This document shows positions 6,521 through 64,000 of a DNA stretch of 64,000 nucleotides, in pieces. Within the stretch, counting starts at the first letter, position 1. Every line of letters begins with the position of its first letter. Below the pieces are notes generated by a model. It did not search any database. It had not been told where the DNA came from and saw only the letters and a list, made by a program, of their open reading frames with translations. Location of the stretch: assembly GCF_003790525.1 (NCBI RefSeq), contig NZ_CP033635.1; one strand, given 5' to 3'. A program made the position numbers and the translations under genes. This DNA is from Escherichia coli (GTDB lineage: Bacteria; Pseudomonadota; Gammaproteobacteria; Enterobacterales; Enterobacteriaceae).

Positions 6521-6877
6521 GAGTCAGACAACGAAGTGAACATCAGGATGATGACACTTCTGAAGGACACACCAGGATGGTGTTTCAGGGAAAGGCTTCT
6601 GGATGAAGCGAAGAGGATGACGCAGGACGCGTTAAAGGACACCTCCAGGATGGAGAATGAGAACCGGTCAGGATGATTCGGTGGGTCAGGAAGGCCAGGA
6701 ACACTTCAGGATGAAGTATCACATCGGGGTGGTGTGAGCAGGAAGCAATAGTTCAGGATGAACGATTGGTCGCAAGGCCAGAGGAAAAGTTGTCAAGGAT
6801 GAGCAGGGAGCAACAAAAGTAGCTGGAATGCTGCGAAACGAACCGGGAGCACTGTGAATACAGTGCTCCCTTTTTTT
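6521..6877 (+). ncRNA. csrB: CsrB regulatory RNA (CsrA-sequestering sRNA)
   Basis: about 360 nt with roughly 20 reiterated CAGGATG / AGGA(N) motifs on the plus strand, ending in a GC hairpin (gggagcactg...cagtgctccc) plus T7 run; non-coding (minus-strand ORFs here are spurious). Confidence 0.9.
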
Positions 6878-6922
6878 ATTCCTGCTATCCTTCGCGGCAG
6901 TTTTTCTTATTGAGGTTGCTTT

Positions 6923-10288: not shown

Positions 10289-10289
10289 G

Positions 10290-11630
10290 ATGGCGACACA
10301 ATCCAGTCCTGTTATTACTGATATGAAAGTCATTCCGGTGGCCGGGCATGACAGCATGTTGCTTAATATTGGTGGTGCACATAACGCATATTTCACCCGC
10401 AATATTGTGGTACTCACCGATAACGCCGGGCATACCGGCATTGGTGAAGCGCCGGGCGGAGAGGTGATTTATCAGACACTGGTCGAGGCTATTCCGATGG
10501 TGCTGGGCCAGGAAGTTGCGCGCCTGAATAAAGTGGTTCAGCAGGTGCATAAAGGTAATCAGGCAGCCGATTTTGATACCTTCGGCAAAGGTGCCTGGAC
10601 TTTTGAATTGCGCGTTAATGCCGTGGCGGCGCTGGAAGCCGCCTTGCTTGACCTGCTAGGTAAGGCGCTGAATGTTCCGGTCTGCGAACTGTTAGGGCCA
10701 GGCAAGCAACGTGATGCTATTACCGTTCTCGGTTATCTGTTTTATATCGGTGATCGGACCAAAACCGATCTTCCTTATCTGGAAAATACTCCGGGCAACC
10801 ATGAGTGGTATCAATTGCGGCATCAGAAAGCGATGAACAGCGAAGCCGTTGTGCGTCTGGCGGACGCCTCACAGGATCGCTATGGCTTTAAAGATTTCAA
10901 ACTTAAGGGCGGAGTGTTACCTGGCGAGCAAGAAATCGACACTGTTCGTGCATTGAAGAAACGCTTCCCGGATGCGCGGATTACCGTTGATCCCAACGGA
11001 GCATGGCTGCTTGATGAAGCTATTTCTCTGTGCAAAGGGCTGAATGATGTTCTCACCTATGCCGAAGATCCGTGTGGCGCAGAACAGGGTTTCTCCGGAC
11101 GTGAAGTGATGGCGGAATTTCGGCGGGCGACCGGCTTGCCCGTCGCGACTAATATGATCGCCACCAACTGGCGCGAAATGGGCCATGCGGTGATGCTCAA
11201 TGCGGTAGATATTCCACTTGCCGACCCGCACTTCTGGACGCTTTCCGGTGCAGTCCGCGTAGCGCAGCTTTGCGACGACTGGGGGCTGACCTGGGGCTGC
11301 CATTCCAATAACCACTTTGATATCTCTCTGGCGATGTTTACCCATGTGGGCGCGGCGGCACCGGGTAATCCTACCGCTATCGATACCCACTGGATTTGGC
11401 AGGAGGGCGATTGTCGCCTGACCAAAAATCCGCTGGAGATTAAAAATGGAAAAATTGCCGTTCCTGATGCGCCCGGTCTGGGCGTGGAACTGAACTGGGA
11501 GCAGGTACAAAAGGCGCATGAGGCCTATAAACGTCTGCCTGGCGGTGCGCGTAACGACGCGGGCCCGATGCAGTACCTGATCCCCGGCTGGACCTTTGAC
11601 CGTAAACGTCCCGTTTTCGGCCGTCATTGA
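10290..11630 (+). CDS. gudX: glucarate dehydratase-related protein
   Basis: 446-aa enolase-superfamily paralogue of gudD; ATG at 10290 right after gudP stop (ORF track start 10275 likely an extension). Confidence 0.85.
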
Positions 11631-19695: not shown

Positions 19696-19944
19696 ATGAT
19701 CCACAGTAGCGTAAAGCGTTGGGGAAATTCTCCTGCAGTGCGGATCCCGGCTACGTTAATGCAGGCGCTCAATCTGAATATTGATGATGAAGTGAAGATT
19801 GACCTGGTGGATGGAAAATTAATTATTGAGCCAGTGCGTAAAGAGCCCGTATTTACGCTTGCTGAACTGGTCAACGACATCACGCCGGAAAACCTCCACG
19901 AGAATATCGACTGGGGGGAGCCGAAAGATAAGGAAGTCTGGTAA
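19696..19944 (+). CDS. mazE: antitoxin MazE
   Basis: 82-aa AbrB-fold antitoxin, overlaps mazF start. Confidence 0.9.
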
Positions 19945-20279
19945 TGGTAAGCCGATACGTACCCGATACGGGCGATCTGATTTGGGTTGATTTTGACCCG
20001 ACAAAAGGTAGCGAGCAAGCCGGACATCGTCCGGCTGTTGTCCTGAGTCCGTTCATGTACAACAACAAAACAGGTATGTGTCTGTGTGTTCCTTGTACAA
20101 CGCAATCAAAAGGATATCCGTTCGAAGTTGTTCTATCCGGTCAGGAACGTGATGGCGTAGCGTTAGCTGATCAGGTAAAAAGTATCGCCTGGCGGGCAAG
20201 AGGAGCAACGAAGAAAGGAACAGTTGCCCCAGAGGAATTACAACTCATTAAAGCCAAAATTAACGTGCTGATTGGGTAG
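19944..20279 (+). CDS. mazF: endoribonuclease toxin MazF
   Basis: 111-aa PemK/MazF-family ORF. Confidence 0.9.
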   Translation: MVSRYVPDTGDLIWVDFDPTKGSEQAGHRPAVVLSPFMYNNKTGMCLCVPCTTQSKGYPFEVVLSGQERDGVALADQVKSIAWRARGATKKGTVAPEELQLIKAKINVLIG

Positions 20280-24433: not shown

Positions 24434-25859
24434 TAATGCCAGTCAGTTAAGCAACTGACTGGCTCTTTTTCGGGGCTGTGGGGTATTTCCAGGGCCTCTC
24501 CTTTACCACTCTCGGGAAGGCCCTTTCCCTTCTTGTCGGTAATTTCACAAGTTGTCCCATACTTGCAAGATCGCGCATCAGCTCCGGTATACGTCCCGGT
24601 GAAGCGCCCTGCAATGTCATCAGCATTCTCATCACCATTCCACATGATTCTGAGAAACTCAGTTGATTCGGCCAGTAACCTTTCAGATATTCCGCCATTT
24701 TAATCATCTGATATCTCACCAGATTATAAGCCAGTAAGACACCCCACAGCTCTTGCTCCACAAGCTCCGGTTTTTTACTTCTCAGCGTCAGCCTGCTCAG
24801 TTGCATCGTCTGTTTTATCTCCCTGTATCCCAGTTCGATTTCCCAGCGATGACTGTACAGATCCGCCATTTCTCCTCCGGGGAAGCGCATGGCGTCCGTC
24901 ATCGACGTCAGCAGATGGCAGACTTTTCCTTTGCGCGTCACGGTCAGCAGGCGGGCTGTCACTTCATTTCCCAGTCCCGGCCACTTTTTTCGTGCCTGCG
25001 GGCTGGTTTTCAGCTTCACCAGATGATCGCCTTTACCCAGTTTTCTGATCTCTTCATATTGCGCTCCCTTTCTGAGAGGTATCATCCAGTGGCGGTGTTC
25101 TCCCGCCAGGCTCCAGGCATTTAACAGTCCCAGTGAGTAATAACCTTTATCCATTAACGTCAGAGTGTTATCGCCGGTTTGTTCTATAAGTTGCTCAGCA
25201 AGCTCATTTTCGCTGTTCTTCATCGTGCCGAAGGCTGCAGCCGTCAGCAGATGGCTGGTCAGTTCCATCTGGCAGACCATTTTGACCTGCGGGTAGAGCG
25301 CCGGGTTCCCGGCATGTGTCTGGCGGGGGAAGGCTGCATCGTTCTCTGGTGTATCCGGTGTGCGCCAGAACACACCATCGATGGCCAGCAGGGTCAGGCC
25401 GCACCAGTGCGGATGCGGCGTGGCGTTATGCCAGAGCTGCGCTGTTTTCGTGAACACGCGGCGGACAGCCTCACTTCCCAGGCGCTGGCGGGCCTGAATA
25501 ACGGCACTGGGGGCAACGAAGGGGCGATTGCCCGGCAGCATGATGTCCAGGCGATTCACAATCTGGTGAAGAGGTTCTTTACGCTCAAGCGCCATGCCAA
25601 CAATACACCAGACCATCATTTCGAGGGGAAGACGGCGCTTGCGTAGCGTTACAGTACCTGATTCGGCAAGGCAACGAGAGATGAGTTCGGGGTCGAGGTA
25701 ATCCCCCAGAGAAGTCAGTGGGTTACGCAGAGAATCGTAACGGGATACCAGATCAAGAGCCTGTCCAATGTGCATAAAAAAATCCGGAAACAAGTGAGCG
25801 TTTCCGGATTCTTACACAGCCACTGGATCGGTCAACTGATCCTTAACTGATCGGCATTA
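24434..25859 (-). mobile_element. IS4 insertion sequence
   Basis: about 1426 bp; terminal imperfect IRs (taatgccagtcagttaag / cttaactgatcggcattac); flanked by direct repeat cagccttcgggctg (13-14 bp); contains DDE transposase. Confidence 0.9.
24447..25775 (-). CDS. insG: IS4 transposase
   Basis: about 442-aa IS4-family DDE transposase ([15 protein letters not shown]...); track start 25793 is a short extension. Confidence 0.9.
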
Positions 25860-31404: not shown

Positions 31405-32814
31405 TCATTCTACCATGCAGGCGCGTAGCGACCAGTAGTGTAACGTGACGTCAGACTCGCCCTGTAATATCAGCGAAGCTGGATGATGGGGAAAATAACG
31501 ATTGCTCATTACGCCTTCGCCATTATTGATGAATATCTCTATGCTGGAACTGTCACAGAGAATCTTCAGTGACGTTACGCTTCCTCGCCAGTAACGAGTT
31601 AGTTTCTCTTGCCCTGCAAGGCTTTTCCTCTGTAGTTGAATACCATCGTCATTAAGATGCAGTGCCAGTGCGTTGCCAAAATTCAGATGTAGCTCGCCTG
31701 ATGGAATGATGTCCATTTCCAGACGTTCAATTGCGACAGGCGGCGCATGATCCGCTTTTCCTTGCCAGAAGTGTTCAGCTTCACGCAGTTGCGCGAGTTC
31801 CCTGATTGGCATCTGAAATAATTTTCCCTTCTGGAATGAGAGTTCGCGAAAACAGGTCATTTGATGCTGCCAATGATGCTTTCTGGTTGGTTGCAACATC
31901 TCTTCGCCATCAGGAACCCCCATCCAGCCGACCAGTAATCGTCGCCCGTCCGGGGCTTCCATCGTCTGTGGTGCATAGAATTCAAATCCCGCATCCAGCT
32001 CTGAGAAAGCGCCATGCGTAAATTTGCCTGTCTCGTAATCAAACTGTCCATGTAGCCAGGCGCAGGGATAGGTATTCAGATAGCGCTCATGTTCGCGCGC
32101 CATTCCCTGGGGGCAGCAGAGGAGAATGTATTCACCATCAAGGGCGAAAAGATCAGGACATTCCCACATGTATCCTGCGTTATCAATTTCATTCAGACCA
32201 TTACCAGCAATTTCTCCATGAAAAGACCAGGTATAGAGATCGACAGAGGAATACAGCAGCACTTTCCCCCGTTTCTCTTTATCTTGCGCGCCAAGCACCA
32301 TGTACCATCGGCTGTTGTGCTTCCAGACTTTTGGATCACGAACATGTCCGGTGTAACCATCAGGTAACGGTATGACAGGGCCTAATTTATCAAACCCGCC
32401 CTGGTTATTTTCGGTGGCCAGACATTGCCATGCCGTTCTGCTGCCATCATCAAACTTAACATTACCGGTATAGCAAAGTGTGAGAACGCCCTGATTATTA
32501 ACCGCGCTTCCTGAGTAACAACCATTACGGTCATACTCTTTATCGGGCATTAGCGCTAATGGTTCATGCTGCCAGTGCAATAAATCCGTCGAACTCCAGT
32601 GCCCCCAACATTTGTACTTATGATTACAATCCAATGGATTCCACTGATAAAACAGATGATAGCGGCCTCCTGACCAGCAAAAGCCATTTGGATCGTTCAT
32701 TAGTCCGGTGACGGGAGCGAGATGCCAACAAGGATAGTGGGCATCTGCCTGTGCTTTGGACTGACCTTTCATCACTGCCTGTAAAATCGCGGGCATTTGT
32801 GAAGGCATCGACAT
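31405..32814 (-). CDS. scrB: sucrose-6-phosphate hydrolase (GH32 invertase)
   Basis: 469 aa with GH32 NDPNG catalytic motif. Confidence 0.85.
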
Positions 32815-34184
32815 TACTCCTCGTCTGTTTTGTATTTGAGCAATAAAGAGAGACTAAAAGCGACAGCGAAAGCAATCACCATTCCAATAATATAATTAAC
32901 CAACGATGTTGGCTGAACGATTGCCATGCCGGGTATTGCGGTCAGACCAACGGCAGTCATATAAACGTGAACAGAGACAACCCAGGCACCGCCGGCAGCG
33001 CCACCAATTAAGGCCGCAATAAAAGGTTTAACAAAACGAAGGTTGATACCAAAAATAGCGGCTTCAGTAATCCCTAACATTGCGGAAAAAGCCGAGGGTA
33101 GGGTGATTGCTTTAATTTTTGTATCTTTGGTTTTAAACCATACCGCCAGACATGCACCGCCTTGCGCAACGTTTGCCATTGCCCAAATAGGCAGCAGGAA
33201 ATTAACACCGATTGCAGGGTTACCTAAAAGTCCTGCTTCAATTGCGTGGAAGCTATGATGAATACCCGTAATAACAATCGCTGAATATAGCCCGCCGAAT
33301 AACAACCCCGCTAACCAGCCAGCGTGTGCAATCAGCGTGCTGAGAACGAAAGAGATACCATCACCTAACGCTCGCCCTGCCGGACCAATAATTAAAAGAG
33401 CGATAAAGCCAGAAATGACGACAGTCAGAAATGGCGTCAGAATGAGATCCAGAGCATCAGGGATAAACCTGCGTAACTGTTTTTCCACTATGCTCATAAA
33501 CCATACTGCCAGAAGCACGGGGAAAACCGTTCCCTGATAGCCAATCATGGCGATTTCAAAACCGAAGAAGTTCATTGTCTGAAATCCCGCAGCAACGCCC
33601 CAGGCATTTGTGAGTGCCGGGTGAGTCAGAATCCCTCCTAATGTCGCGCCAAGATAAGGATTTCCACCAAATTCACGAGCAGCAGTAAAGCCAATCAGGA
33701 TGGGGAGAATAATAAATGCGGCTGAACTGCACATATCCAGCAGGATATAAATCGCATTATCGGCATTCACCCAGCCATATGTTTTCACCATTCCCAGAAG
33801 CCCCATTAATAAACCAGAAGCAACAATGGCAGGAATGATGGGGACAAAAATATTAGAAAGCAGCCGTGCTATTCGCTGAAAAGGATTGAGTTTTTGAGCG
33901 GCGAGTCGAGCGGTATCTGCTTTACTGGATTCGCTAATACCCGCAACCTGAATAAAGGCAGCATAGACTTTATTAACCACGCCGGTGCCAAAGATGATCT
34001 GCATTTGCCCTGAATTACGAAAACAACCTTTCACTCCATCAATCTGGCCAATGGCATGTTGATCGGCAAGTGTGTCGTCAACCAGTACCAGCCGTAGGCG
34101 AGTGGCGCAATGTGCTGCACTGGCGATGTTCTCCTTACCACCTAATAAAGGAAGCAACGATTGGGCGATTTTATCGAAATCCAT
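32814..34184 (-). CDS. scrA: PTS sucrose-specific EIIBC component
   Basis: 456 aa; N-terminal EIIB Cys motif (CATRLRL) followed by polytopic EIIC. Confidence 0.85.
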   Translation of the reverse strand: MDFDKIAQSLLPLLGGKENIASAAHCATRLRLVLVDDTLADQHAIGQIDGVKGCFRNSGQMQIIFGTGVVNKVYAAFIQVAGISESSKADTARLAAQKLNPFQRIARLLSNIFVPIIPAIVASGLLMGLLGMVKTYGWVNADNAIYILLDMCSSAAFIILPILIGFTAAREFGGNPYLGATLGGILTHPALTNAWGVAAGFQTMNFFGFEIAMIGYQGTVFPVLLAVWFMSIVEKQLRRFIPDALDLILTPFLTVVISGFIALLIIGPAGRALGDGISFVLSTLIAHAGWLAGLLFGGLYSAIVITGIHHSFHAIEAGLLGNPAIGVNFLLPIWAMANVAQGGACLAVWFKTKDTKIKAITLPSAFSAMLGITEAAIFGINLRFVKPFIAALIGGAAGGAWVVSVHVYMTAVGLTAIPGMAIVQPTSLVNYIIGMVIAFAVAFSLSLLLKYKTDEE

Positions 34185-34244
34185 ATAACCCTCTAATTCA
34201 TTGTTATTTCAGTAAAAGCCTCACATTCGTGAGGCTGTCTGGTA

Positions 34245-35786
<1,542 letters not shown>

Positions 35787-35805
35787 TTATAAAAATTGCT
35801 AAAAT

Positions 35806-35879
35806 GCTAAACCGGTTTAGGTGTTGATAATAAAGCTGACTTTTTAGCCAGAGCAATTATTTTCGCTAAACCGATTTAG
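35806..35879. promoter_or_regulatory. two palindromic operator-like sites (gctaaaccggtttag at 35806-35820; gctaaaccgatttag at 35865-35879) in the scrY promoter region
   Basis: near-perfect LacI-type palindromes TAAACCGGTTTA in the scrK-scrY intergenic region. Confidence 0.55.
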
Positions 35880-35929
35880 TAAATGTGACAGGCACGACAA
35901 ATCGGGTTACAGATACAACAGCAGGATCA

Positions 35930-36850
35930 CTATTGTGAAGGGAGATCGTGTTGTCGGGGTAAGGCGGTTATCGCGCCTTTAGCCGTGGTCGCCAGAGCAC
36001 CACAAATCTGAGCTTGTGCAATGATTCGTTCAAGCTGTCTGGTATTTGTTGGTATTCCAGAATCAGCCAGACCTGCAAGTAATCCAGCGACAAAAGCATC
36101 TCCTGCCCCGGTCGTATCGACGACAGAAACAGGTTTGGCGGGATAGTGGATAAACTGCCCCTGAAAATACACAAGTACGCCATTTTTTCCTTGTGTAATA
36201 AGCAATAAAGTCAACGAATAACGTTGTACTAATGAATATGCGCCTTGCTGAACCTGGCTTTCGCCACTGATGAATAGCAACTCTTCTTCGGACAATTTAG
36301 CGATATTCGCCAGCGAAAGTGCGCGATCAAGGTATTTCCTTAATAGCGCTTCACTCTGCCAGAGATCGCTGCGGATATTGGGATCAAAACTGATGTTTCC
36401 GCCAGCCTGACGTATTTTCTCCATAGCCAGAAATGCGGTACTTCGGGAAGGTTCTGCACTGAGCGCAATGGAACAAAGATGGAGCCATTCACCCGGCCCA
36501 AATGCAGGAAGGTCACCAGGTTGTAAAAAAAGATCGGCACTTGGGCGTACCATAAAGGTAAAGTTTCTTTCTCCTTGCTCATCAAGTCCTACAGCCACAA
36601 TTGAGGTGCGTTGTTGAGGATCAAGAGACATATAATGTGTATCAACATTTTCTGTACTCAGTGTCTGATACATAAAGCGACCGAAAGGATCATCGCCAAC
36701 TTTGCCAATAAAGGCACTTTTCCCCCCCAGCCTTGCGATACCGACTGCAACATTAGCAGGCGCCCCGCCAGGACACTGTAGTAGTCTCCCCTGGCTTTCG
36801 GGTAATAAATCAACAACCGCATCACCGAGTACCCATACTCTTGCGCTCAT
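35930..36850 (-). CDS. scrK: fructokinase (PfkB family)
   Basis: 306 aa with PfkB signature (DTTGAGDAF). Confidence 0.85.
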   Translation of the reverse strand: MSARVWVLGDAVVDLLPESQGRLLQCPGGAPANVAVGIARLGGKSAFIGKVGDDPFGRFMYQTLSTENVDTHYMSLDPQQRTSIVAVGLDEQGERNFTFMVRPSADLFLQPGDLPAFGPGEWLHLCSIALSAEPSRSTAFLAMEKIRQAGGNISFDPNIRSDLWQSEALLRKYLDRALSLANIAKLSEEELLFISGESQVQQGAYSLVQRYSLTLLLITQGKNGVLVYFQGQFIHYPAKPVSVVDTTGAGDAFVAGLLAGLADSGIPTNTRQLERIIAQAQICGALATTAKGAITALPRQHDLPSQ

Positions 36851-52073: not shown

Positions 52074-52808
52074 ATGTCCAAACTCGATCTAAACGCCCTG
52101 AACGAACTGCCGAAGGTAGATCGCATTCTGGCGCTGGCGGAAACTAACGCCGAACTGGAAAAACTGGACGCTGAAGGCCGCGTTGCCTGGGCGCTGGATA
52201 ATCTGCCCGGTGAATATGTACTTTCTTCCAGCTTTGGCATTCAGGCGGCGGTGAGCCTGCATCTGGTGAATCAGATTCACCCGGATATTCCAGTGATCCT
52301 CACCGATACCGGTTATCTGTTCCCGGAAACCTACCGCTTTATTGACGAGTTAACGGACAAACTCAAACTCAACCTGAAAGTGTACCGTGCTACCGAAAGC
52401 GCTGCCTGGCAGGAAGCGCGCTACGGCAAACTGTGGGAACAGGGCGTTGAAGGTATTGAAAAGTACAACGATATCAACAAAGTCGAACCGATGAACCGGG
52501 CGCTAAAAGAACTGAACGCGCAAACCTGGTTTGCCGGCCTGCGCCGTGAACAATCCGGCAGTCGTGCCAATTTACCGGTGCTGGCAATTCAGCGTGGCGT
52601 ATTTAAAGTGCTGCCGATTATCGACTGGGATAACCGAACTATTTATCAGTACCTGCAAAAACATGGCCTGAAATATCACCCATTATGGGATGAAGGATAT
52701 TTATCGGTCGGTGATACCCATACAACCCGTAAATGGGAACCCGGCATGGCGGAAGAAGAAACGCGTTTCTTTGGCTTAAAAAGAGAATGTGGGTTACACG
52801 AAGGGTAA
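52074..52808 (+). CDS. cysH: phosphoadenosine phosphosulfate (PAPS) reductase
   Basis: 244 aa from [14 protein letters not shown]; GAGGA RBS; track start 51921 reads through the REP. Confidence 0.95.
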
Positions 52809-52826
52809 ATATTGCCGGATAAATTA

Positions 52827-52864
52827 AACGCCTCTGTCAGAAATGATGGGGGCGTTTTTATTTT
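52827..52864 (+). terminator. putative cysH terminator
   Basis: aaacgcc...ggcgttt stem followed by tttttatttt. Confidence 0.4.
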
Positions 52865-53072
52865 GCGAGCAGCATTCCTGATTTTAAACGTGAACGTCGT
52901 TGGAAGAATTAACAGGTATAGAATGGCGTTGGGTGCTTGAGGCTGTCTGGCGTTAAGCATTCGCGAGGTTCCAGATGGACAAAAGCCCCAGGCGATATTT
53001 CTATCAACCTGAGGCCAGCGTTCGAACCCAAACAATTCGAATGTTAGTCTCTTCTTTGCAGGGAGGCAAGAC

Positions 53073-53225
53073 ATGCTGACAAAATATGCCCTTGTGGCAA
53101 TCATAGTGCTGTGTTTTACAGTACTGGGATTCACGCTGATGGTAGGCGACTCGTTGTGTGAGTTGAGTATCAGAGAACGTGGTATGGAGTTTAAGGCGGT
53201 TCTCGCTTACGAATCGAAGAAGTAG
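53073..53225 (+). CDS. Hok/Gef-family type I toxin (HokE-like small membrane peptide)
   Basis: 50-aa [53 protein letters not shown]; single TM helix, conserved Cys and C-terminal AYES motif; GGGAGG RBS; not in the supplied ORF track (below length cut-off). Confidence 0.8.
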
Positions 53226-53246
53226 CCACCACGCGGGGGTAAAACC

Positions 53247-54585
53247 CATAAGCGCTAACTTAAGGGTTGTGGTATTACGCCTGATATGATTTAACGTGCC
53301 GATGAATTACTCTCACGATAACTGGTCAGCAATTCTGGCCCATATTGGTAAGCCCGAAGAACTGGATACTTCGGCACGTAATGCCGGGGCTCTAACCCGC
53401 CGCCGCGAAATTCGTGATGCTGCAACTCTGCTACGTCTGGGGCTGGCTTACGGCCCCGGGGGGATGTCATTACGTGAAGTCACTGCATGGGCTCAGCTCC
53501 ATGACGTTGCAACATTATCTGACGTGGCTCTCCTGAAGCGGCTGCGGAATGCCGCCGACTGGTTTGGCATACTTGCCGCACAAACACTTGCTGTACGCGC
53601 CGCAGTTACGGGTTGTACAAGCGGAAAGAGATTGCGTCTTGTCGATGGAACAGCAATCAGTGCGCCCGGGGGCGGCAGCGCTGAATGGCGACTACATATG
53701 GGATATGATCCTCATACCTGTCAGTTCACTGATTTTGAGCTAACCGACAGCAGAGACGCTGAACGGCTGGACCGATTTGCGCAAACGGCAGACGAGATAC
53801 GCATTGCTGACCGGGGATTCGGTTCGCGTCCCGAATGTATCCGCTCACTTGCTTTTGGAGAAGCTGATTATATCGTCCGGGTTCACTGGCGAGGATTGCG
53901 CTGGTTAACTGCAGAAGGAATGCGCTTTGACATGATGGGTTTTCTGCGCGGGCTGGATTGCGGTAAGAACGGTGAAACCACTGTAATGATAGGCAATTCA
54001 GGTAATAAAAAAGCCGGAGCTCCCTTTCCGGCACGTCTCATTGCCGTATCACTTCCTCCCGAAAAAGCATTAATCAGTAAAACCCGACTGCTCAGCGAGA
54101 ATCGTCGAAAAGGACGAGTAGTTCAGGCGGAAACGCTGGAAGCAGCGGGCCATGTGCTATTGCTAACATCATTACCGGAAGATGAATATTCAGCAGAGCA
54201 AGTGGCTGATTGTTACCGTCTGCGATGGCAAATTGAACTGGCTTTTAAGCGGCTCAAAAGTTTGCTGCACCTGGATGCTTTGCGTGCAAAGGAACCTGAA
54301 CTCGCGAAAGCGTGGATATTTGCTAATCTACTCGCCGCATTTTTAATTGACGACATAATCCAGCCATCGCTGGATTTCCCCCCCAGAAGTGCCGGATCCG
54401 AAAAGAAGAACTAACTCGTTGTGGAGAATAACAAAAATGGTCATCTGGAGCTTACAGGTGGCCATTCGTGGGACAGTATCCCTGACAGCCTACAAAACGC
54501 AATTGAAGAACGCGAGGCATCGTCTTAACGAGGCACCGAGGCGTCGCATTCTTCAGATGGTTCAACCCTTAAGTTAGCGCTTATG
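53247..54585 (+). mobile_element. IS186 insertion sequence
   Basis: 1339 bp; perfect 23-bp terminal IRs (cataagcgctaacttaagggttg); flanking about 11-bp direct repeat gggtaaaaccc within a GGGG-N6-CCCC palindrome. Confidence 0.9.
53302..54414 (+). CDS. insL: IS186 transposase (IS4 family)
   Basis: about 370 aa from MNYSHDNWSAILAHIGKPEEL, recognisable as the IS186 transposase. Confidence 0.9.
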   Translation: MNYSHDNWSAILAHIGKPEELDTSARNAGALTRRREIRDAATLLRLGLAYGPGGMSLREVTAWAQLHDVATLSDVALLKRLRNAADWFGILAAQTLAVRAAVTGCTSGKRLRLVDGTAISAPGGGSAEWRLHMGYDPHTCQFTDFELTDSRDAERLDRFAQTADEIRIADRGFGSRPECIRSLAFGEADYIVRVHWRGLRWLTAEGMRFDMMGFLRGLDCGKNGETTVMIGNSGNKKAGAPFPARLIAVSLPPEKALISKTRLLSENRRKGRVVQAETLEAAGHVLLLTSLPEDEYSAEQVADCYRLRWQIELAFKRLKSLLHLDALRAKEPELAKAWIFANLLAAFLIDDIIQPSLDFPPRSAGSEKKN

Positions 54586-54768
54586 GGGTAAAACCCCGCG
54601 TACTGAATTGTGATGGTTTGGTCTCCTGCACCCTTTTTTAATTTATATTGTTTATGTGAATATTATGCCTATGTTTATTATTCATATATATTACGGATGA
54701 AAATTATTTGATTATTCATAATGTAAATATTTTATTGAACGATATATATCACAGATAATTTTTAATAT

Positions 54769-57468
54769 ATGCGTAAATATCCTTTAAGTTTACTGAAGGA
54801 TAAAAATATTGTGACTTTTTTTGATTTCTGGGGAAAAACCCGACGCGGCGAGAAAGACGGGGGCGACGACTATCACCTTCTTTGCTGGCATTCGCTGGAT
54901 GTAGCCGCGATGGGCTATTTAATGGTTAAAAGCAATTGCTTCGGACTGGCTGACTATTTTCGTCAATTAGGTTTCGCTGACACGGAGCAGGCAGCACAAT
55001 TTTTCGCCTGGCTGCTGTGCTGGCACGATATTGGAAAATTTGCCCGCTCTTTTCAGCAACTTTACCTGCACCCACAACTCAAGGTCCCGGAAGGCGCAAG
55101 AAAGAATTACGAAAAGATCTCTCATTCAACGCTGGGCTACTGGTTGTGGAACCATTATTTAAGTGAATGTCAGGAGTTGCTTCCTTCATCTTCACTCTCT
55201 CCGCGCAAACTTAAACGGGTGATGGAGATGTGGATGCCCATGACTACCGGGCATCATGGTCGACCCCCTGAGCGTATGGATGAACTGGATAATTTTCTGC
55301 CTGAAGACAAAGGTGCCGCACGAGATTTTCTCCTTGCAATCAAGGTACTGTTTCCGCTCATAGAGATCCCCACATTCTGGGATGATGACGAGGGCGTTGA
55401 ACTTATAAAACAACTTTCCTGGTATATCTCTGCAACCGTCGTACTTGCAGACTGGACGGGATCGTCAACGCGATATTTTCCACGCGTCGCACAGACAATG
55501 GATATTGAAGATTACTGGCAGAAAACTTTAGTTCAGGCTCAAAACGCCTTAACCGTCTTTCCTCCAAAAGCAGAAAGCGCGCCTTTCACCGGAATTAATA
55601 CGCTGTTTCCTTTTATTGAGAATCCGACACCGCTACAGCAAAAGGTGCTGGATCTGGATATCAGCCAGCCGGGACCACAGTTATTTATTCTGGAGGATGT
55701 AACCGGCGCAGGTAAAACAGAAGCGGCGCTTATCCTGGCGCACAGGTTGATGGCTGCGGGGAAAGCGCAGGGTTTGTTTTTTGGCCTGCCAACAATGGCA
55801 ACGGCCAATGCCATGTACGATCGACTGGTCAAAACCTGGCTTGCTTTCTATTCGCCAGAGTCCCGCCCCAGCCTGGTGCTGGCACACAGTGCCCGAACAT
55901 TAATGGACCGCTTTAATGAATCACTCTGGTCCGGTGATTTAGTCGGGTCAGAAGAACCGGATGAACAAACGTTCAGTCAGGGATGTGCGGCCTGGTTTGC
56001 CGACAGTAACAAGAAGGCGCTACTGGCTGAAATTGGCGTCGGCACGCTGGATCAGGCGATGATGGCTGTGATGCCGTTCAAACATAATAATCTGCGGCTT
56101 CTGGGACTGAGTAACAAAATCCTGCTGGCTGATGAGATCCATGCCTGTGACGCTTACATGTCATGCATTCTTGAAGGGCTGATCGAGCGGCAGGCGCGTG
56201 GCGGAAACAGCGTCATTTTGCTTTCTGCCACGTTATCTCAACAGCAGCGCGACAAACTCGTTGCTGCCTTTGCGCGTGGTATAGAGGGCCAGCAAGAAGC
56301 TCCGTTCCTGGAAAAGGATGATTACCCCTGGCTGACGCACGTTACGAAATCCGATGTGCATTCACACCGGGTAGCGACGCGCAAAGACGTTGAGCGCAGC
56401 GTGAGTGTGGGTTGGCTTCATAGCGAACAAGAGTGTATTGCGCGTATCGCATCGGCGGTAAGTCAGGGGAAATGTATCGCCTGGATCCGAAATTCTGTCG
56501 ATGACGCCATCCAGGTTCATCGTCAGTTACTTGCCCGCGGCGTCATTCCTGCTTCCAGCCTTTCACTTTTTCATAGCCGCTTTGCTTTTAGCGATCGCCA
56601 GCGAATTGAAACGGAGACGCTGGCACGCTTTGGTAAAGAAGACTGTTCACAGCGTGCCGGAAAAGTCCTCATTTGTACTCAAGTCCTGGAGCAGAGCGTT
56701 GACTGCGACCTGGACGAAATGATTTCCGACCTTGCCCCTGTTGATTTACTGATCCAGCGAGCAGGGCGATTACAGCGACATATCCGCGATATGAATGGCC
56801 AGTTAAAGCGTGACGGTAAAGACGAGCGTCACCCTCCTGAATTGCTGATTCTGGCCCCCGTCTGGGACGACTCTCCGGGTGACGAATGGTTTGGCAGTGC
56901 CATGCGTAACAGTGCATTTGTCTATCCCGATCATGGGCGAATCTGGCTGACGCAGCGTGTGCTGCGTGAGCAAGGTGCTATTCAGATGCCACACTCAGCC
57001 CGGCTTCTGATTGAATCAGTCTACGGTGAGGACGTAGTAATGCCGGAAGGGTTTGCCCGCAGCGAGCAGGAGCAAGTGGGCAAATATTACTGCGATCGCG
57101 CAATGGCTAAAAAGTTTGTACTGAACTTCAGGCCCGGCTATGCCGCCAATATCAACGATTACCTCCCGGAAAAACTGTCGACACGTCTGGCTGAAGAGTC
57201 TGTTTCCCTGTGGCTGGCTACCTGTATTGACGGTGTGGTGAAGCCTTATGCCACAGGTGCACACGCATGGGAAATGAGCGTTGTCAGAGTGCGCCGAAGC
57301 TGGTGGAAAAAACATCGGGATGAGTTTTCTTTACTGGAAGGGGATGCGTTCAGGCAGTGGTGCGTTGAACAGCGGCATGATCCGGAGATGGCAAACGTGA
57401 TTTTAGTCACCGATGACGAAAGTTGTGGGTATTCGGCTACGGAGGGATTGATTGGCAAGGTTGGTTGA
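54769..57468 (+). CDS. cas3: Cas3 nuclease-helicase (type I-E)
   Basis: 899 aa; N-terminal HD motif (HSLDVAAM), Walker A (TGAGKTEAAL), DExH (DEIHA); heads the cas operon. Confidence 0.9.
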   Translation: MRKYPLSLLKDKNIVTFFDFWGKTRRGEKDGGDDYHLLCWHSLDVAAMGYLMVKSNCFGLADYFRQLGFADTEQAAQFFAWLLCWHDIGKFARSFQQLYLHPQLKVPEGARKNYEKISHSTLGYWLWNHYLSECQELLPSSSLSPRKLKRVMEMWMPMTTGHHGRPPERMDELDNFLPEDKGAARDFLLAIKVLFPLIEIPTFWDDDEGVELIKQLSWYISATVVLADWTGSSTRYFPRVAQTMDIEDYWQKTLVQAQNALTVFPPKAESAPFTGINTLFPFIENPTPLQQKVLDLDISQPGPQLFILEDVTGAGKTEAALILAHRLMAAGKAQGLFFGLPTMATANAMYDRLVKTWLAFYSPESRPSLVLAHSARTLMDRFNESLWSGDLVGSEEPDEQTFSQGCAAWFADSNKKALLAEIGVGTLDQAMMAVMPFKHNNLRLLGLSNKILLADEIHACDAYMSCILEGLIERQARGGNSVILLSATLSQQQRDKLVAAFARGIEGQQEAPFLEKDDYPWLTHVTKSDVHSHRVATRKDVERSVSVGWLHSEQECIARIASAVSQGKCIAWIRNSVDDAIQVHRQLLARGVIPASSLSLFHSRFAFSDRQRIETETLARFGKEDCSQRAGKVLICTQVLEQSVDCDLDEMISDLAPVDLLIQRAGRLQRHIRDMNGQLKRDGKDERHPPELLILAPVWDDSPGDEWFGSAMRNSAFVYPDHGRIWLTQRVLREQGAIQMPHSARLLIESVYGEDVVMPEGFARSEQEQVGKYYCDRAMAKKFVLNFRPGYAANINDYLPEKLSTRLAEESVSLWLATCIDGVVKPYATGAHAWEMSVVRVRRSWWKKHRDEFSLLEGDAFRQWCVEQRHDPEMANVILVTDDESCGYSATEGLIGKVG

Positions 57469-57565
57469 GATGTCTGCGACAGGATTCTCTGAATAGTTGA
57501 TACACAAAAAAGGATGGAAGGATGGACAACCGACCAGGGATGGTCTTTTTTACGAGAGGATGCGT

Positions 57566-59128
57566 ATGAACTCGTTTTCACTTCTGACAACCCCGTGGTT
57601 GCCTGTTCGTTTCAAAGACGGAACGACAGGCAAGCTGGCACCAGTCGATCTGGCTGATGAAAATGTTGTCGATATCGCCGCACCGCGAGCAGATTTACAA
57701 GGTGCGGCCTGGCAGTTTTTGCTGGGACTACTACAAACCAGCTTCGCGCCAAAAGATCATCGTCGTTGGGATGATATCTGGGAAGACGGACTGGAAGCTG
57801 AAAAGCTACGAGAAGCATTGCTGTCTTTAGAACATGCTTTCCAGTTTGGGCCTGATTCATCTTCATTTATGCAGGATTTTGAGGCGCTCACGGGAGATAA
57901 AGTTCCGGTCGCTTCGCTACTGCCTGAGATTCCCGGCTCTCAAACGACGAAGTTTAATAAAGACCATTTTATCAAGCGGGGTGTAACGGAATATCTGTGC
58001 CCCCATTGCTTAGCATTGGCCTTGTTCTCTTTACAGTTGAATGCACCCGCGGGCGGCAAAGGCTATCGCACCGGTTTACGAGGCGGTGGGCCGATGACGA
58101 CTCTCATTGAATTACAGGAATATCAGGGCAATCAACAAACACCCTTGTGGCGCAAACTGTGGCTCAACGTGATGCCGCAGGATGAAGCCGACTTACCGCT
58201 ACCCAAAAAATTTGACGATCTGATTTTCCCCTGGCTAGGCCCGACGCGTACCAGCGAACTGGTCGGTGCGGTGGTAACCCATGATCAGGTCAATAAACTC
58301 CAGGCGTACTGGGGAATGCCGCGGCGTATACGTATTGATTTTAATACCACGACAGTCGGCAACTGCGATATTTGCGACGAGCAGAACGACGCGCTCCTGA
58401 GCCTGATGACGACCAAAAATTATGGTGCCAATTATGCCATGTGGCAGCATCCCTTAACGCCTTACCGTGTACCACTTAAAGAGGGTGGCGAGTTTTACTC
58501 CGTTAAACCACAACCGGGCGGTTTAATCTGGCGCGACTGGTTAGGCCTTATCGAAACGGGTAAATCAGAAAACAATACGGAACTTCCCGCGTTGGTGGTG
58601 AAACTCTTTAATGCCAGCAGTCTGAAACAGGCAAAAGTGGGCCTATGGGGATTTGGTTATGATTTTGACAACATGAAAGCGCGCTGTTGGTACGAACACC
58701 ATTTCCCGCTACTGCTCAATAAAAAAGAAGGCCAGATACCGAAGCTGCGGCTGGCTGCGCAAACGGCTTCACGGATTCTGAGTCTGTTACGGAGTGCATT
58801 GAAAGAAGCATGGTTCTCCGATCCAAAAGGTGCAAGGGGTGATTTCAGTTTTGTGGATATCGACTTCTGGAACAAAACTCAGCATCGCTTCCTGAGGTTA
58901 GTGCGCCAAATTGAAGAAGGTCAGGATGCGGATGAATTACTCGGCAAATGGCAAAAGGAAATGTGGTTATTCGCGCGTCAGGATTTTGACGAGCGTGTAT
59001 TCACTAATCCTTATGAGCCCGTTGATTTGAAACGCGTCATGACCGCGCGCAAGAAATATTTTACAACATCGGCGGAGAAGCAAAGTGCTAAAGCCGCCAG
59101 GGAGAAAAAGCAGGAGGCTGCTGAATGA
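57566..59128 (+). CDS. casA: Cascade large subunit Cse1/CasA (Cas8e)
   Basis: about 520 aa from MNSFSLLTTPWLPVR with AGGA RBS; track start 57497 likely an extension; position after cas3. Confidence 0.8.
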   Translation: MNSFSLLTTPWLPVRFKDGTTGKLAPVDLADENVVDIAAPRADLQGAAWQFLLGLLQTSFAPKDHRRWDDIWEDGLEAEKLREALLSLEHAFQFGPDSSSFMQDFEALTGDKVPVASLLPEIPGSQTTKFNKDHFIKRGVTEYLCPHCLALALFSLQLNAPAGGKGYRTGLRGGGPMTTLIELQEYQGNQQTPLWRKLWLNVMPQDEADLPLPKKFDDLIFPWLGPTRTSELVGAVVTHDQVNKLQAYWGMPRRIRIDFNTTTVGNCDICDEQNDALLSLMTTKNYGANYAMWQHPLTPYRVPLKEGGEFYSVKPQPGGLIWRDWLGLIETGKSENNTELPALVVKLFNASSLKQAKVGLWGFGYDFDNMKARCWYEHHFPLLLNKKEGQIPKLRLAAQTASRILSLLRSALKEAWFSDPKGARGDFSFVDIDFWNKTQHRFLRLVRQIEEGQDADELLGKWQKEMWLFARQDFDERVFTNPYEPVDLKRVMTARKKYFTTSAEKQSAKAAREKKQEAAE

Positions 59129-59661
59129 GTATTGTAAAAGAGGAGCACAAAGCCACGCTGCGTAAATGGCACGAAGAGTTGCAGGAAAAACGCGGCAATC
59201 GTGCCAGTCTGCGGCGTAGCACAACGGTTAATGATGTTTGTCTGTCAGAAGGTTTTCGTTCTCTGCTGATGCAGACCCACACGTTGTGGAAAATTGAATC
59301 ACAGGAGTGGCGTTTTACCGCACTGGCGCTGGTTGCCGCCGTTGCCGCCAATGTAAAAGCCATTGATGAACGGCAGCCTTTTGCCGCGCAGTTGGCGGCG
59401 GTAATGTCTGAGGGGCGTTTTACTCGCCTGTCGGCAATCAAAACGCCGGATGATTTACTGCGCCAGTTACGTCGCGCGGTCAAATTATTAAACGGTTCCG
59501 TCAATCTTATCTCTTTGGCAGACGATATTTTCCGCTGGTGCCAGGAGAGTGACGACCTGCTCAACCATCACCGCCGTCAGCAGCGGCCAACAGAATTTAT
59601 CCGTATCCGCTGGGCGCTGGAATATTACCAGGCTGGCGACGCCGATAACGAACAAAATTAA
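59125..59661 (+). CDS. casB: Cascade small subunit Cse2/CasB
   Basis: 178 aa; ATGA overlap with casA stop; operon position. Confidence 0.8.
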   Translation: MSIVKEEHKATLRKWHEELQEKRGNRASLRRSTTVNDVCLSEGFRSLLMQTHTLWKIESQEWRFTALALVAAVAANVKAIDERQPFAAQLAAVMSEGRFTRLSAIKTPDDLLRQLRRAVKLLNGSVNLISLADDIFRWCQESDDLLNHHRRQQRPTEFIRIRWALEYYQAGDADNEQN

Positions 59662-59675
59662 TAAAGGACTATCTC

Positions 59676-60731
59676 ATGACGACATTTATTCAGCTTCATT
59701 TGTTAACCGCTTACCCTGCAGCCAACCTTAACCGTGATGACACCGGTGCGCCGAAAACCGTGGTGCTGGGTGGAGCAACGCGTCTGCGCGTTTCCTCGCA
59801 AAGTCTGAAACGTGCGTGGCGCACTTCTGCACTTTTTGAACAGGCGCTGGCGGGCCATATTGGTATTCGTAGTGGGCGTATCGCGCGCGAGGCAGCAACT
59901 ATCATGATAGAGAAAGGAATCGAAGAAAAAAAAGCCATCGAATGGGCGGCAGATATTGCCGATTATCTTGGTAAAGCCAAAAAAGACAAAAAACCAAAAG
60001 ATCCGCTCACTAACGCTGAAACTGAACAGCTCGTCCATATCAGCCCGGCAGAATTTGACGCCGTAAAAGCGCTGGCCCATCAACTGGCAGAAGAAAAGCG
60101 CGCGCCAAAAGAGGACGATCTCGCTTTGTTACGTAAAGATCGTATGGCGGTAGATATCGCCATGTTTGGTCGTATGCTGGCGAATAAACCCGAGTTTAAT
60201 GTTGAAGCCGCCTGTCAGGTCGCGCACGCGTTTGGTGTCAGTGAAACGATTGTCGAAGATGATTTTTTCACCGCCGTTGATGATTTGCGCCAGGCCTCTG
60301 AAGATGCTGGTGCAGGGCATCTTGGTGAAACTGGATTTGGTTCTGCGCTGTTCTACACCTATATCTGCATTGATAAAGATCTGCTGGTCGAAAACCTCGG
60401 CGGTGACGAAGCATTAGCTAATCAGACCCTGCGCGCCTTTACGGAAGCAGCGTTTAAAGTTTCCCCAACCGGTAAACAAAACAGCTTTGCCAGCCGTGCC
60501 TACGCCTCCTGGGCGCTGGCAGAAAAAGGCACCGAACAACCGCGTTCTCTGGCGGCGGCTTTCTATGAACCCATTAATGGCACACGTCAGTTAGATGTGG
60601 CGGTGCAGCGTATTACAACGCTTCGCGAAAACATGAATACGGTTTACGAACAGAAGACCGAATGCGCAAGTTTTGACGTGATGAACAAACAGGGAAGCAT
60701 GAAGGACGTGCTGGACTTTATCTGCGCGTAA
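59676..60731 (+). CDS. casC: Cascade backbone subunit Cas7/CasC
   Basis: 351 aa; operon position. Confidence 0.85.
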   Translation: MTTFIQLHLLTAYPAANLNRDDTGAPKTVVLGGATRLRVSSQSLKRAWRTSALFEQALAGHIGIRSGRIAREAATIMIEKGIEEKKAIEWAADIADYLGKAKKDKKPKDPLTNAETEQLVHISPAEFDAVKALAHQLAEEKRAPKEDDLALLRKDRMAVDIAMFGRMLANKPEFNVEAACQVAHAFGVSETIVEDDFFTAVDDLRQASEDAGAGHLGETGFGSALFYTYICIDKDLLVENLGGDEALANQTLRAFTEAAFKVSPTGKQNSFASRAYASWALAEKGTEQPRSLAAAFYEPINGTRQLDVAVQRITTLRENMNTVYEQKTECASFDVMNKQGSMKDVLDFICA

Positions 60732-60741
60732 GGGGCGGCTT

Positions 60742-61488
60742 ATGAGCCAATATCTGATTTTTCAGCTTCATGGGCCAATGGCATCCTGGGGCGTTGATGC
60801 ACCCGGTGAGGTGCGTCATAGCCATGAACTGCCTTCGCGTTCAGCATTGCTGGGGCTGCTGGCTGCCGGGGTAGGGATACGGCGTGATGACACCGAATGC
60901 TTAAACGCGTTTAATCGCCACTATTCACTGGTGGTTTGCGCCAGCCGTAACCCGCGCTGGGCACGGGATTATCACACGGTCCAGATGCCAAAAGAGGTGC
61001 GTAAAGCGCGTTATTTCAGCCGTCGCGAAGAGTTGAGCGACCCTGATCTTCTAAGCGCGATTATCTCCCGGCGCGACTACTACACCGATGCCTGGTGGAT
61101 GGTGGCCGTGGCAACAACAGCTGATGCGCCTTACAGCCTCGAACAGTTGCAGGAAGGTTTACGCCATCCGGTTTTTCCGCTTTATCTGGGGCGAAAAAGC
61201 CATCCGCTGGCATTACCCCTTGCGCCGTTACTGCTCGAAGGCAACGCGTCTGATGCCTTACGTAACGCATACCAACAGTATCAGGATCGTTTCCACGAAC
61301 TAAAAGTCTCACTCCCGAAACTTCAGGATGAATGCTGGTGGGAAGGGGAGCACGATGGCCTGGTCTCGAGCAAAATATTACGCCGCCGGGATGTTCCTTT
61401 AAATCGTCAGCAGTGGCTGTTTGGGGAACGCACCGTCAATCAGGGGCCGTGGCTCAGCAAGGAGGAACCATGTACCTCTCAAGAATAA
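60742..61488 (+). CDS. casD: Cascade subunit Cas5/CasD
   Basis: 248 aa; operon position; N-terminal LIFQLHGPMASWG resembles the K-12 CasD N-terminus. Confidence 0.8.
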   Translation: MSQYLIFQLHGPMASWGVDAPGEVRHSHELPSRSALLGLLAAGVGIRRDDTECLNAFNRHYSLVVCASRNPRWARDYHTVQMPKEVRKARYFSRREELSDPDLLSAIISRRDYYTDAWWMVAVATTADAPYSLEQLQEGLRHPVFPLYLGRKSHPLALPLAPLLLEGNASDALRNAYQQYQDRFHELKVSLPKLQDECWWEGEHDGLVSSKILRRRDVPLNRQQWLFGERTVNQGPWLSKEEPCTSQE

Positions 61489-62116
61489 CCTTACATACCG
61501 GCCAGCTTTCGCCTGCGCAGTTGCTGCATCTGGTGGATCGCGGGGAATATGTGATGCATCAGTGGCTGTGGGATCTTTTTCCTGGCGGCAAAGAAAGGCA
61601 ATTTCTTTATCGTCGGGAAGAACTCCAGGGCGCGTTTCGCTTTTTTGTCCTGTCGCAGGAACGCCCGGCGGAAAGTGAAACGTTCACCATCGAATGCCGG
61701 TCATTTGCGCCTGAACTGCATACCGGACAATCCCTTTGTTTCAACCTGCGGGCGAATCCAACAGTCTGTAAAGCGGGTAAGCGCCACGATCTGCTGATGG
61801 AGGCGAAACGGCAGGTGAGGGGGCAGGCGGAAGGAAGAAATGTCTGGTTGCATCAACAACAGGCGGCGCTGGACTGGCTGGCAGCGCAGGGGGAGAGAAG
61901 CGGTTTTACACTGCTGGATACCTCGGTCGATGCCTACCGACAACAGCAACTGCGGCGGGAAAACTCCCGGCAACTGATCCAGTTCAGTAGCGTGGATTAT
62001 ACAGGGATGCTTACAGTCACCGATCCAGGGTTATTTCTGCAACGTCTCTGCCTGGGGTATGGCAAAAGCCGGGCGTTCGGCTGTGGTCTGATGTTAATCA
62101 AACCCGGAGCAGAGGC

Positions 62117-62120
<4 letters not shown>
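61470..62120 (+). CDS. casE: CRISPR RNA endoribonuclease Cas6e/CasE
   Basis: 216 aa from MYLSRITLHTGQ with AGGAGG RBS; ends GCGLMLIKP; track start 61332 is an extension. Confidence 0.85.
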
Positions 62121-63330
<1,210 letters not shown>

Positions 63331-63426: not shown

Positions 63427-64000
63427 GTGTTCCCTGCGCCAGCGGGGATAAACCGGTGACCATAAGGGCATTTCATACTGCCTTGCTGTGTTCCCTGCGC
63501 CAGCGGGGATAAACCGGTGAACGTGACAACGCCCGCGACAGAAACGTCGTGTTCCCTGCGCCAGCGGGGATAAACCGGGAAGAAGCGGTAAAGCGGGTTC
63601 CAGTTCAGCGTGTTCCCTGCGCCAGCGGGGATAAACCGAAATTAATTTCGAAACGGGCGTTGATGGTGAAGTGTTCCCTGCGCCAGCGGGGATAAACCGG
63701 CTGGCGCACCTTACGCAAAAATAGACGTAAAGTGTTCCCTGCGCCAGCGGGGATAAACCGCCAGGGAGCGAAGCTGTGGCCATGCTGAAAGGGTGTTCCC
63801 TGCGCCAGCGGGGATAAACCGGGGTTCTATTTCCTCGGGATTTGCCGACACGCGTGTTCCCTGCGCCAGCGGGGATAAACCGGTCAACGCTGGTCAGGCG
63901 TGGTACTTCCTCCGGTGTTCCCTGCGCCAGCGGGGATAAACCGGCTGCCGCGCTTTCGGTGTGGGAGCAGTATGAGTGTTCCCTGCGCCAGCGGGGATAA
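63427..64000 (+). CRISPR. type I-E CRISPR array, at least 10 repeats (9 complete, 10th truncated by window end), 61-bp period
   Basis: identical 29-bp repeats GTGTTCCCTGCGCCAGCGGGGATAAACCG starting at 63427, 63488, 63549, 63610, 63671, 63732, 63793, 63854, 63915, 63976; nine unique 32-bp spacers. Confidence 0.97.

Follow-up and report, generated by a model that had tools for sequence, protein, structure and literature searches.

Between cysH and cas3 of this Escherichia coli chromosome lies a toxin gene of the hok type, and the question that it raises is whether a working host-killing module is present there and whether its siting next to a CRISPR-Cas operon has any meaning. The window analysed is the whole stretch of 64,000 nucleotides, and coordinates count from its first letter. 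A first-pass annotation had placed a Hok-type module at 52925-53246, treated it as intact, and pointed to the neighbouring cas genes. The reading favoured here, with a probability of about 0.8, is that the region is a chromosomal hokX/sokX type I toxin-antitoxin locus, a paralogue of hokE/sokE, that has been split by IS186 and has lost the long-range lock of its mRNA. As such it is already known, annotated and published as the hokX/sokX locus beside cysH.

The toxin itself is the least contentious element. An ATG-started and uninterrupted ORF of 50 aa can be read at 53073-53225 on the plus strand, with a GGAGG Shine-Dalgarno sequence at 53062-53066. Its product has the size (~50 aa), N-terminal transmembrane helix and conserved cysteine of the Hok/Gef family (it carries Cys14 and Cys29), and the Pfam profile HOK_GEF (PF01848) matches it at E 3.5e-11 with all of the model covered (1-42/42). 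Identity to K-12 HokE is 78% at the protein level. The coordinates, the AYESKK tail, the family and the closeness to HokE had all been rightly called in the first-pass annotation. Matches to the NCBIfam HokA and Hok-subfamily models are significant, yet lie below the curated cutoffs (57.7 versus 89 bits and 41 versus 73 bits), which is consistent with hokX being a paralogue for which no NCBIfam model meets its cutoff; family membership is based here on Pfam, Rfam and homology. The protein is WP_000956460.1, named ‘Hok/Gef family protein’ in RefSeq, and is identical in CM2, MSB1_4I and BL21(DE3). Exactly the same protein occurs in at least 1000 public contigs under the name Hok family toxin, with certain sources mislabelling it as ‘HokE’.

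Of the Hok homologues tested in a 2026 preprint, 42 of 45 were toxic, HokE among them; the exact hokX peptide is absent from the main text of that preprint. Under artificial expression the hokX ORF would be expected to remain toxic. A separate feature of the coding sequence is that codon 46 specifies Tyr (TAC, 53208-53210, in the context CUUACGAA) and lies in a predicted hairpin loop. The preprint describes A-to-I editing by TadA of hokB codon 29, with Tyr becoming Cys, and reports something comparable for hokC, hokD and hokE at Cys46, which forms a disulfide with Cys29. HokX, having Cys29 together with Tyr46, may therefore be a further TadA editing substrate.

Upstream of the ORF is a structured leader of the hok kind. 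Rfam RF01794 matches 52931-53088 on the plus strand over the full model (1-157) with 111.1 bits against a gathering threshold of 59 (E 7e-26), one of two matches to that model in the 64-kb window, and the conserved helices, including the Sok-target hairpin, are on the hok strand. (The model is named ‘sok antitoxin’ but its match is to the sense strand of hok, between tac and the start of hok; taken at face value it would put Sok on the wrong strand, as what it describes is the hok leader that Sok overlaps.) The string gcttgaggct at 52935-52944, earlier likened to a 5′ tac element, is indeed part of one: it lies within GGGTGCTTGAGGCT at 52931-52944, where the Rfam match begins, and this tac sequence (GGGUGCUUGAGGCU, plus strand) forms the 5′ end of the hokX mRNA and pairs with 54620-54633 in the minimum free energy (MFE) fold of the IS-less transcript, as detailed below. 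From alignment to the IS-free MSB1_4I allele and from the Rfam match, the 5′ part of the mRNA, comprising leader, ORF and the left half of a post-stop hairpin, extends over 52931-53246(+) and now runs into IS186.

Promoters are less readily placed. A probable hokX -10 box, TAGAAT at 52919-52924(+), was picked out by eye and matches the position of TATAAT before GGGTGC in K-12 hokC, and transcription would start near 52925-52931; a search for a hokX -35 box found no good candidate. The sokX promoter probably consists of a -35 box TTGCCT (53069-53064), a 17-nt spacer and a -10 box TAACAT (53046-53041), spanning 53041-53069 on the minus strand, and was also identified by eye. Its -35 box overlaps the hok Shine-Dalgarno sequence, and a homologous TTGCCT-17-TACCAT is present upstream of K-12 sokE. 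It agrees with consensus at 8 of 12 positions, which is under the threshold of the consensus promoter scan used; the scan reported neither promoter, both being placed by eye and homology with weak consensus matches.

The antisense RNA had been expected on the minus strand at about 53000-53080, but an exact match to the annotated K-12 sokX (b4701) maps it instead to 52975-53033(-), a length of 59 nt with its start at 53033, 7 nt past the -10 box. SokX is predicted to have a single-stranded 5′ tail and, after it, a terminator hairpin with a U run (-23.8 kcal/mol, z -3.05). By sequence, then, it is a cis-antisense Sok, given the exact K-12 match, the predicted terminator-like hairpin and the promoter placed by eye. 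Its 5′ end is complementary to the loop, CCCAAACAA, of a predicted Sok-target hairpin at 53011-53051(+) that is seen both in the Rfam consensus structure and in the folds.

A candidate mok-like ORF of 34 codons is present at 52975-53079(+), with a GAGG Shine-Dalgarno sequence at 52965-52968. Its ATG is at the 3′ edge of the SokX-complementary region and its TGA overlaps the hok ATG (AUGCUGA), an arrangement that would fit mok-type coupling. In the B2 and O157 hokX alleles only 18 codons of the frame remain. (In B2-type and O157 alleles, mRNA nt 45-101, a C-to-T change in the Sok-target loop makes the stop and the hok ORF is intact.) Either hokX can do without mok coupling, or the B2 and O157 alleles are translationally silent. 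Since the mok-like ORF is unconserved among hokX alleles, the coupling step known from plasmid R1 may not apply, and the label ‘mokX’ is kept tentative because of this shortening and because the upstream ATGs of hokE are in frame with hok.

What sets this copy apart is IS186. The element, 1339 bp at 53247-54585(+) and in the same orientation as hokX, has the length (~1.34 kb), 23-bp terminal inverted repeats (53247-53269 and 54563-54585), InsL transposase and 10-bp-class G-run/C-run target duplication of IS186, and shows zero differences from K-12 IS186B over its whole extent. The insL gene is intact (53302-54414; NCBIfam IS4-family transposase, 133 bits versus a cutoff of 115). The duplication, GGGTAAAACC, is 10 bp and is found at 53237-53246 and 54586-54595; a repeat search gives 12 bp because the ends of the element are ambiguous. 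Insertion was in the loop of a GCGGGGG-UAAAA-CCCCGC hairpin 21 nt past the hok stop codon. The left half of this hairpin, GCGGGGGTAAAACC, with the left duplication copy is now at 53233-53246(+), and the right copy with the right half (…CCCCGC) is at 54586-54599(+). Removal of IS186 and one copy of the duplication yields exactly the IS-free allele of MSB1_4I.

Beyond the element lies the original 3′ end of the hokX mRNA, namely fbi (GGUCUCCUGCACCC, 54620-54633) and a U run (54634-54639), together 54620-54639(+). Now ~1.35 kb from the hokX ORF, fbi is part of the final 43 nt of the original unit (54597-54639), so that the limits first proposed for the locus, 52925-53246, take in its 5′ four-fifths and leave the last 43 nt beyond IS186. 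That the unit ends with the U run is apparent from comparison of hokX alleles, conservation ceasing directly after it at 54639/54640 (a class of BLAST matches ends at query position 151, that is 54640), and cas-less B2-type strains diverge into the iap flank at the same point. An intrinsic terminator scan of the plus strand predicted none in the first ~1 kb of IS186. For gef, mRNA termination ~200 bp into IS186 has been described (PMC3562002), and the scan did not reproduce a gef-like terminator there for hokX. The CM2 strain is 100% identical to the window over 52809-53260. In the CM2 assembly, however, IS186 carries three 1-nt insertions and a dinucleotide change relative to the intact copy in the window, and its annotation marks it as frameshifted; these differences are likely to be CM2 assembly errors, or else the window is from a sister strain.

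The consequences for RNA structure can be judged from folding. In the MFE structure of the reconstituted IS-less 360-nt mRNA, nt 1-6 and 9-14 (52931-52944) pair with nt 341-354 (54620-54633). This RNA has a predicted stability of -130.7 kcal/mol (z -4.05), not equalled by any of 100 shuffles, and among 58 windows tested along the hokX mRNA its 3′ end is the best duplex partner for the 5′ 16 nt. Reconstituted K-12 hokE and hokC mRNAs have the same 5′-3′ closure with different sequences, the second half-helices being GAGGCU/GGUCUC in hokX, UUGAGG/CUUCAA in hokC and GGGUGCCU/AGGCACCU in hokE. Covariation of tac and fbi among hokX alleles is minimal, with changes on one side only, and because of this the comparison of paralogues is the best comparative support for the pairing. 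Without the terminal 42 nt at the 3′ end, the predicted fold has tac paired locally, nt 1-14 with nt 19-32, and contains the hairpin of nt 81-121 (53011-53051). With read-through of 50-650 nt into IS186 the local tac pairing and the target hairpin were again predicted, in every fold. Contiguous tac-fbi pairing is thus a feature of the IS-free allele and not of the window, where IS186 intervenes, and the hokX locus here is the descendant of a hok/sok family member that at present is without it.

For plasmid R1, tac-fbi pairing holds the complete hok mRNA in a locked state until 3′ trimming triggers a refolding that permits both mok/hok translation and Sok binding, the latter leading to RNase III cleavage (PMC9841398). 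By analogy, and with support from folding, the ~360-nt mRNA of the ancestral IS-free hokX allele would be closed by tac-fbi pairing, untranslatable and inaccessible to Sok. Slow trimming from the 3′ end would free tac and let the leader refold, SokX would pair with the exposed target hairpin and the region of the upstream-ORF start, and the duplex would be destroyed; only where SokX had decayed would Hok be translated and damage the inner membrane. At the present locus, transcripts from the hokX promoter would enter IS186 and never form the lock. The leader would fold directly into the local, Sok-accessible form, leaving no stable latent pool of toxin mRNA, and the locus would still be transcribable and repressible by SokX, as reported for K-12 gef/hokC::IS186. 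It would, on these structural models, be unable to accumulate a stable locked toxin mRNA, its transcripts being open to SokX from the start. With the lock impossible and the latent pool absent, hokX::IS186 would therefore most likely be crippled as a delayed-killing module. The ‘host-killing module’ of the first-pass annotation stands as regards the intact ORF and sokX, with the caveat that IS186 (53247-54585) splits fbi and the 3′ end from the mRNA.

In the literature the IS186 lesion counts as an inactivating one for K-12 hokC and hokE and for hokX of E. coli B (PMC7232551, PMC3562002), and in K-12 gef/hokC::IS186 the element is thought to disrupt fbi and mRNA processing (PMC3562002). However, the mRNA from that K-12 gene is still made and still regulated by antisense RNA (PMC3562002), and ‘inactivated’ may therefore be too strong. 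The ‘ancestral function’ of chromosomal hok is itself uncertain, since IS-free chromosomal hok loci are reported, in the 2026 preprint citing others, to show neither post-segregational killing nor activation by rifampicin.

How far could the locus be something other than a disabled hokX/sokX? That IS186 is without regulatory effect and the killing module fully functional, for instance through some replacement 3′ structure within IS186 that locks or stabilises the mRNA, is unlikely, even with the ORF, Shine-Dalgarno sequence, leader and sokX all intact and identical to the widespread allele and with the persisting transcription and antisense regulation of gef/hokC::IS186 as a precedent. In the native mRNA tac has one strong partner, fbi, which is now 1.35 kb off; no read-through fold of 370-970 nt pairs tac with any part of IS186; and the same lesion is treated as inactivating in PMC7232551. 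A doubt from the opposite direction, that the 50 codons are a chance frame in an intergenic spacer and no gene at all, can draw on the shortness of the ORF and the NCBIfam scores under their curated cutoffs (57.7 versus 89 and 41 versus 73 bits); set against the full-length Pfam match, the 78% HokE identity, the annotation and conservation of the ORF across thousands of genomes, and its setting in a leader that scores 111 bits on a hok-family RNA model, its likelihood is practically nil.

The remaining alternative concerns the neighbours. cysH ends at 52808, with its terminator hairpin downstream at 52826-52857; the sub-threshold Rfam matches for ctRNA_p42d and Spot_42 at 52766-52866 correspond to this hairpin and were rejected. 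On the other side cas3 occupies 54769-57468, with casA to cas2 continuing to ~63330 and a CRISPR array from ~63427. Adjacency to cas3 is thus real, as first pointed out, but is positional only with no functional link: hokX beside cas3 is, on comparative sequence grounds, genome geography and not functional coupling. A role as, for example, an addiction module for the cas locus or an abortive-infection partner of the type I-E system is highly improbable. The same module, with the same 3′ boundary, is by iap in cas-less strains, K-12 has cas genes without hok, and BL21(DE3) has hokX without cas genes. In uropathogenic strains hok is by cysH in 90% and cas is there in 46% (PMC12736100), and hok shows no enrichment around defence systems, 12% of loci being within 20 kb of one where 9.4% would be expected at random (2026 preprint). 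What coupling has to recommend it is that hokX adjoins cas3 both here and in many other strains, and that a contribution of hok/sok to phage defence has been reported (cited in the 2026 preprint).

As to the CRISPR-Cas locus in its own right, the type I-E cas operon is complete (54769-63330) and is followed by an array of at least 10 repeats (GTGTTCCCTGCGCCAGCGGGGATAAACCG, 61-nt period) at 63427-64000 that runs off the end of the window. Tandem Repeats Finder gave no CRISPR array; a separate repeat search did. With the NCBIfam PRK09694 Cas3 equivalog the cas3 product reaches 423 bits, where the cutoff is 569, consistent with the non-K-12 type I-E sequence variant of PMC12736100.

The hokX/sokX locus so interpreted is widespread. 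Of 5426 complete E. coli genomes, 5425 contain sequence matching 52809-53260, and in 4145 the coverage is at least 80%. The name hokX has been used for the cysH-adjacent locus (PMC7232551), and hok with sokX is beside cysH in 90% of urological isolates, the rest having sokX alone in the manner of K-12 (PMC12736100). K-12 keeps only 52809-53075, through the hok ATG, followed by unrelated cas3-upstream sequence, and sokX (b4701) is annotated in this remnant; the earlier statement that K-12 has just a sokX remnant here was accurate, the K-12 deletion beginning directly after the hok ATG. In the O157:H7 TR01 allele (extracted locus 772-800) the 29 nt past the hok ATG are replaced by TGTATATCACTGTAATTCGATATTTATGA, and PGAP calls a shortened 42-aa Hok there. 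The same TGTATATCACTGTAATTCGATATTTATGA also follows the ATG at the K-12 deletion junction (K-12 extracted locus 2268-2296), and this common sequence suggests that the K-12 ‘deletion’ and the O157:H7 TR01 allele share recombination history.

The arrangement in the window, with IS186 in the same orientation as hokX, is present in 170 of the 5426 genomes by a right-junction query, and further genomes have the inverted form. Initial junction queries overcounted, since hokE::IS186 junctions align at ~87% identity, and the right-junction query was clean; in the same 5426 genomes hokE::IS186 junctions are much commoner than those of hokX::IS186. With the element at the same site in both orientations, window-type and BL21-type, IS186 has therefore entered hokX independently at least twice. 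The target sequence, GGGGG-TAAAA-CCCC, is similar to those in hokC and hokE. Interruption of hok copies by IS186 has been on record ever since chromosomal hok genes were first described. A target consensus for IS186 was reportedly set out by SaiSree in 2001, and repeated insertion at hokX is in keeping with the known target preference of the element.

The nearest of the systems available for comparison is hokX of E. coli B/BL21(DE3), at the same cysH-side site, with identical WP_000956460.1 and with IS186 after the same hairpin base; the 59-nt sokX is identical between the window, this locus and the K-12 remnant. In BL21(DE3) IS186 is inverted, its far side abuts the CRISPR array, and neither the hokX 3′ end nor any cas gene is left, whereas the window has a simple insertion with both target duplications, fbi and the cas operon kept. 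(The inverted IS186 at the identical site, with its other end against CRISPR repeats, is at 9640-11480 of the extracted BL21(DE3) locus.) From sequence comparison, the absence of cas from E. coli B looks like an IS186-associated deletion beginning in the hokX hairpin. The K-12 remnant, unlike the window, has kept nothing past the hok ATG.

Among paralogues K-12 hokE/sokE is the closest, with 78% protein identity and ~87% DNA identity over leader and ORF. SokE covers mRNA 45-104 where SokX covers 45-103, and, as in the window, IS186B points the same way as hokE, occupies the loop of the homologous hairpin past the stop and is flanked by a 10-bp duplication. It differs in chromosomal site (ybdK-entD), in its tac and fbi sequences, and in that its upstream ATGs are in frame with hok, the upstream ORF of hokX being in another frame and stopping on the hok ATG. 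K-12 hokC (gef)/sokC has IS186A in a GGGG-N6-CCCC hairpin just past the stop, again with a 10-bp duplication and with fbi split from the ORF, and the first 16 nt of its mRNA, including tac (GGGUGCUUGAGGCUGU), are identical to those of hokX. Its toxin is much more divergent, however, mokC is an in-frame 69-codon extension, and the IS is opposite to hok. With plasmid R1 hok/sok are shared a ~50-aa Hok/Gef toxin, long-range pairing of a 5′ tac with a 3′ fbi (for hokX predicted, and in the IS-free allele), a short cis-antisense Sok with a 5′ tail and terminator hairpin, and the start of an upstream ORF, for hokX a candidate one, in the Sok-complementary region. Unlike R1, hokX is chromosomal with its mRNA split by IS186, and its mok arrangement is different and unconserved; for chromosomal hok loci, in contrast to R1, there is no evidence of post-segregational killing (2026 preprint).

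Several features elsewhere in the window may be recorded in passing. A second toxin-antitoxin locus, the type II mazE/mazF, is at 19696-20279 downstream of relA, by colinearity with CM2. The small RNA CsrB is at 6521-6880(+) (Rfam RF00018, 383 bits), and an IS4 element is beside eno (24447-25793). Between ygcE and queE is a sucrose cluster (~31405-36850) comprising kinase, porin, PTS IIBC, sucrose-6-phosphate hydrolase and a LacI-type regulator; other strains have a second CRISPR array in this region (PMC12736100).

A broader reading is that IS186 in the hokC, hokE and hokX hairpins has been selected, either as converting a latent-killer mRNA into a harmless Sok-titrated form or for same-orientation transposase read-through. 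It is a doubtful one, with the odds heavily against it. IS186 recurrence, at hokX in both orientations and in different lineages, would then exceed what mere target preference gives, and in the same-orientation cases (the window and K-12 hokE) the transposase gene would come under read-through from a Sok-gated toxin promoter. If true, transposition would be coupled to Sok-depleting conditions.

Beyond correct annotation the significance of the split hokX/sokX is small. The appropriate label is hokX/sokX, not hokE as in some databases, with the IS186 interruption flagged, and so labelled the locus is neither counted as an intact type I toxin-antitoxin system nor read as a CRISPR-associated toxin. 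It is one more case of IS186 targeting the GC hairpin that follows a hok stop codon, and hokX::IS186 could serve as a natural comparison, with and without the IS, for the role of fbi in chromosomal hok loci.
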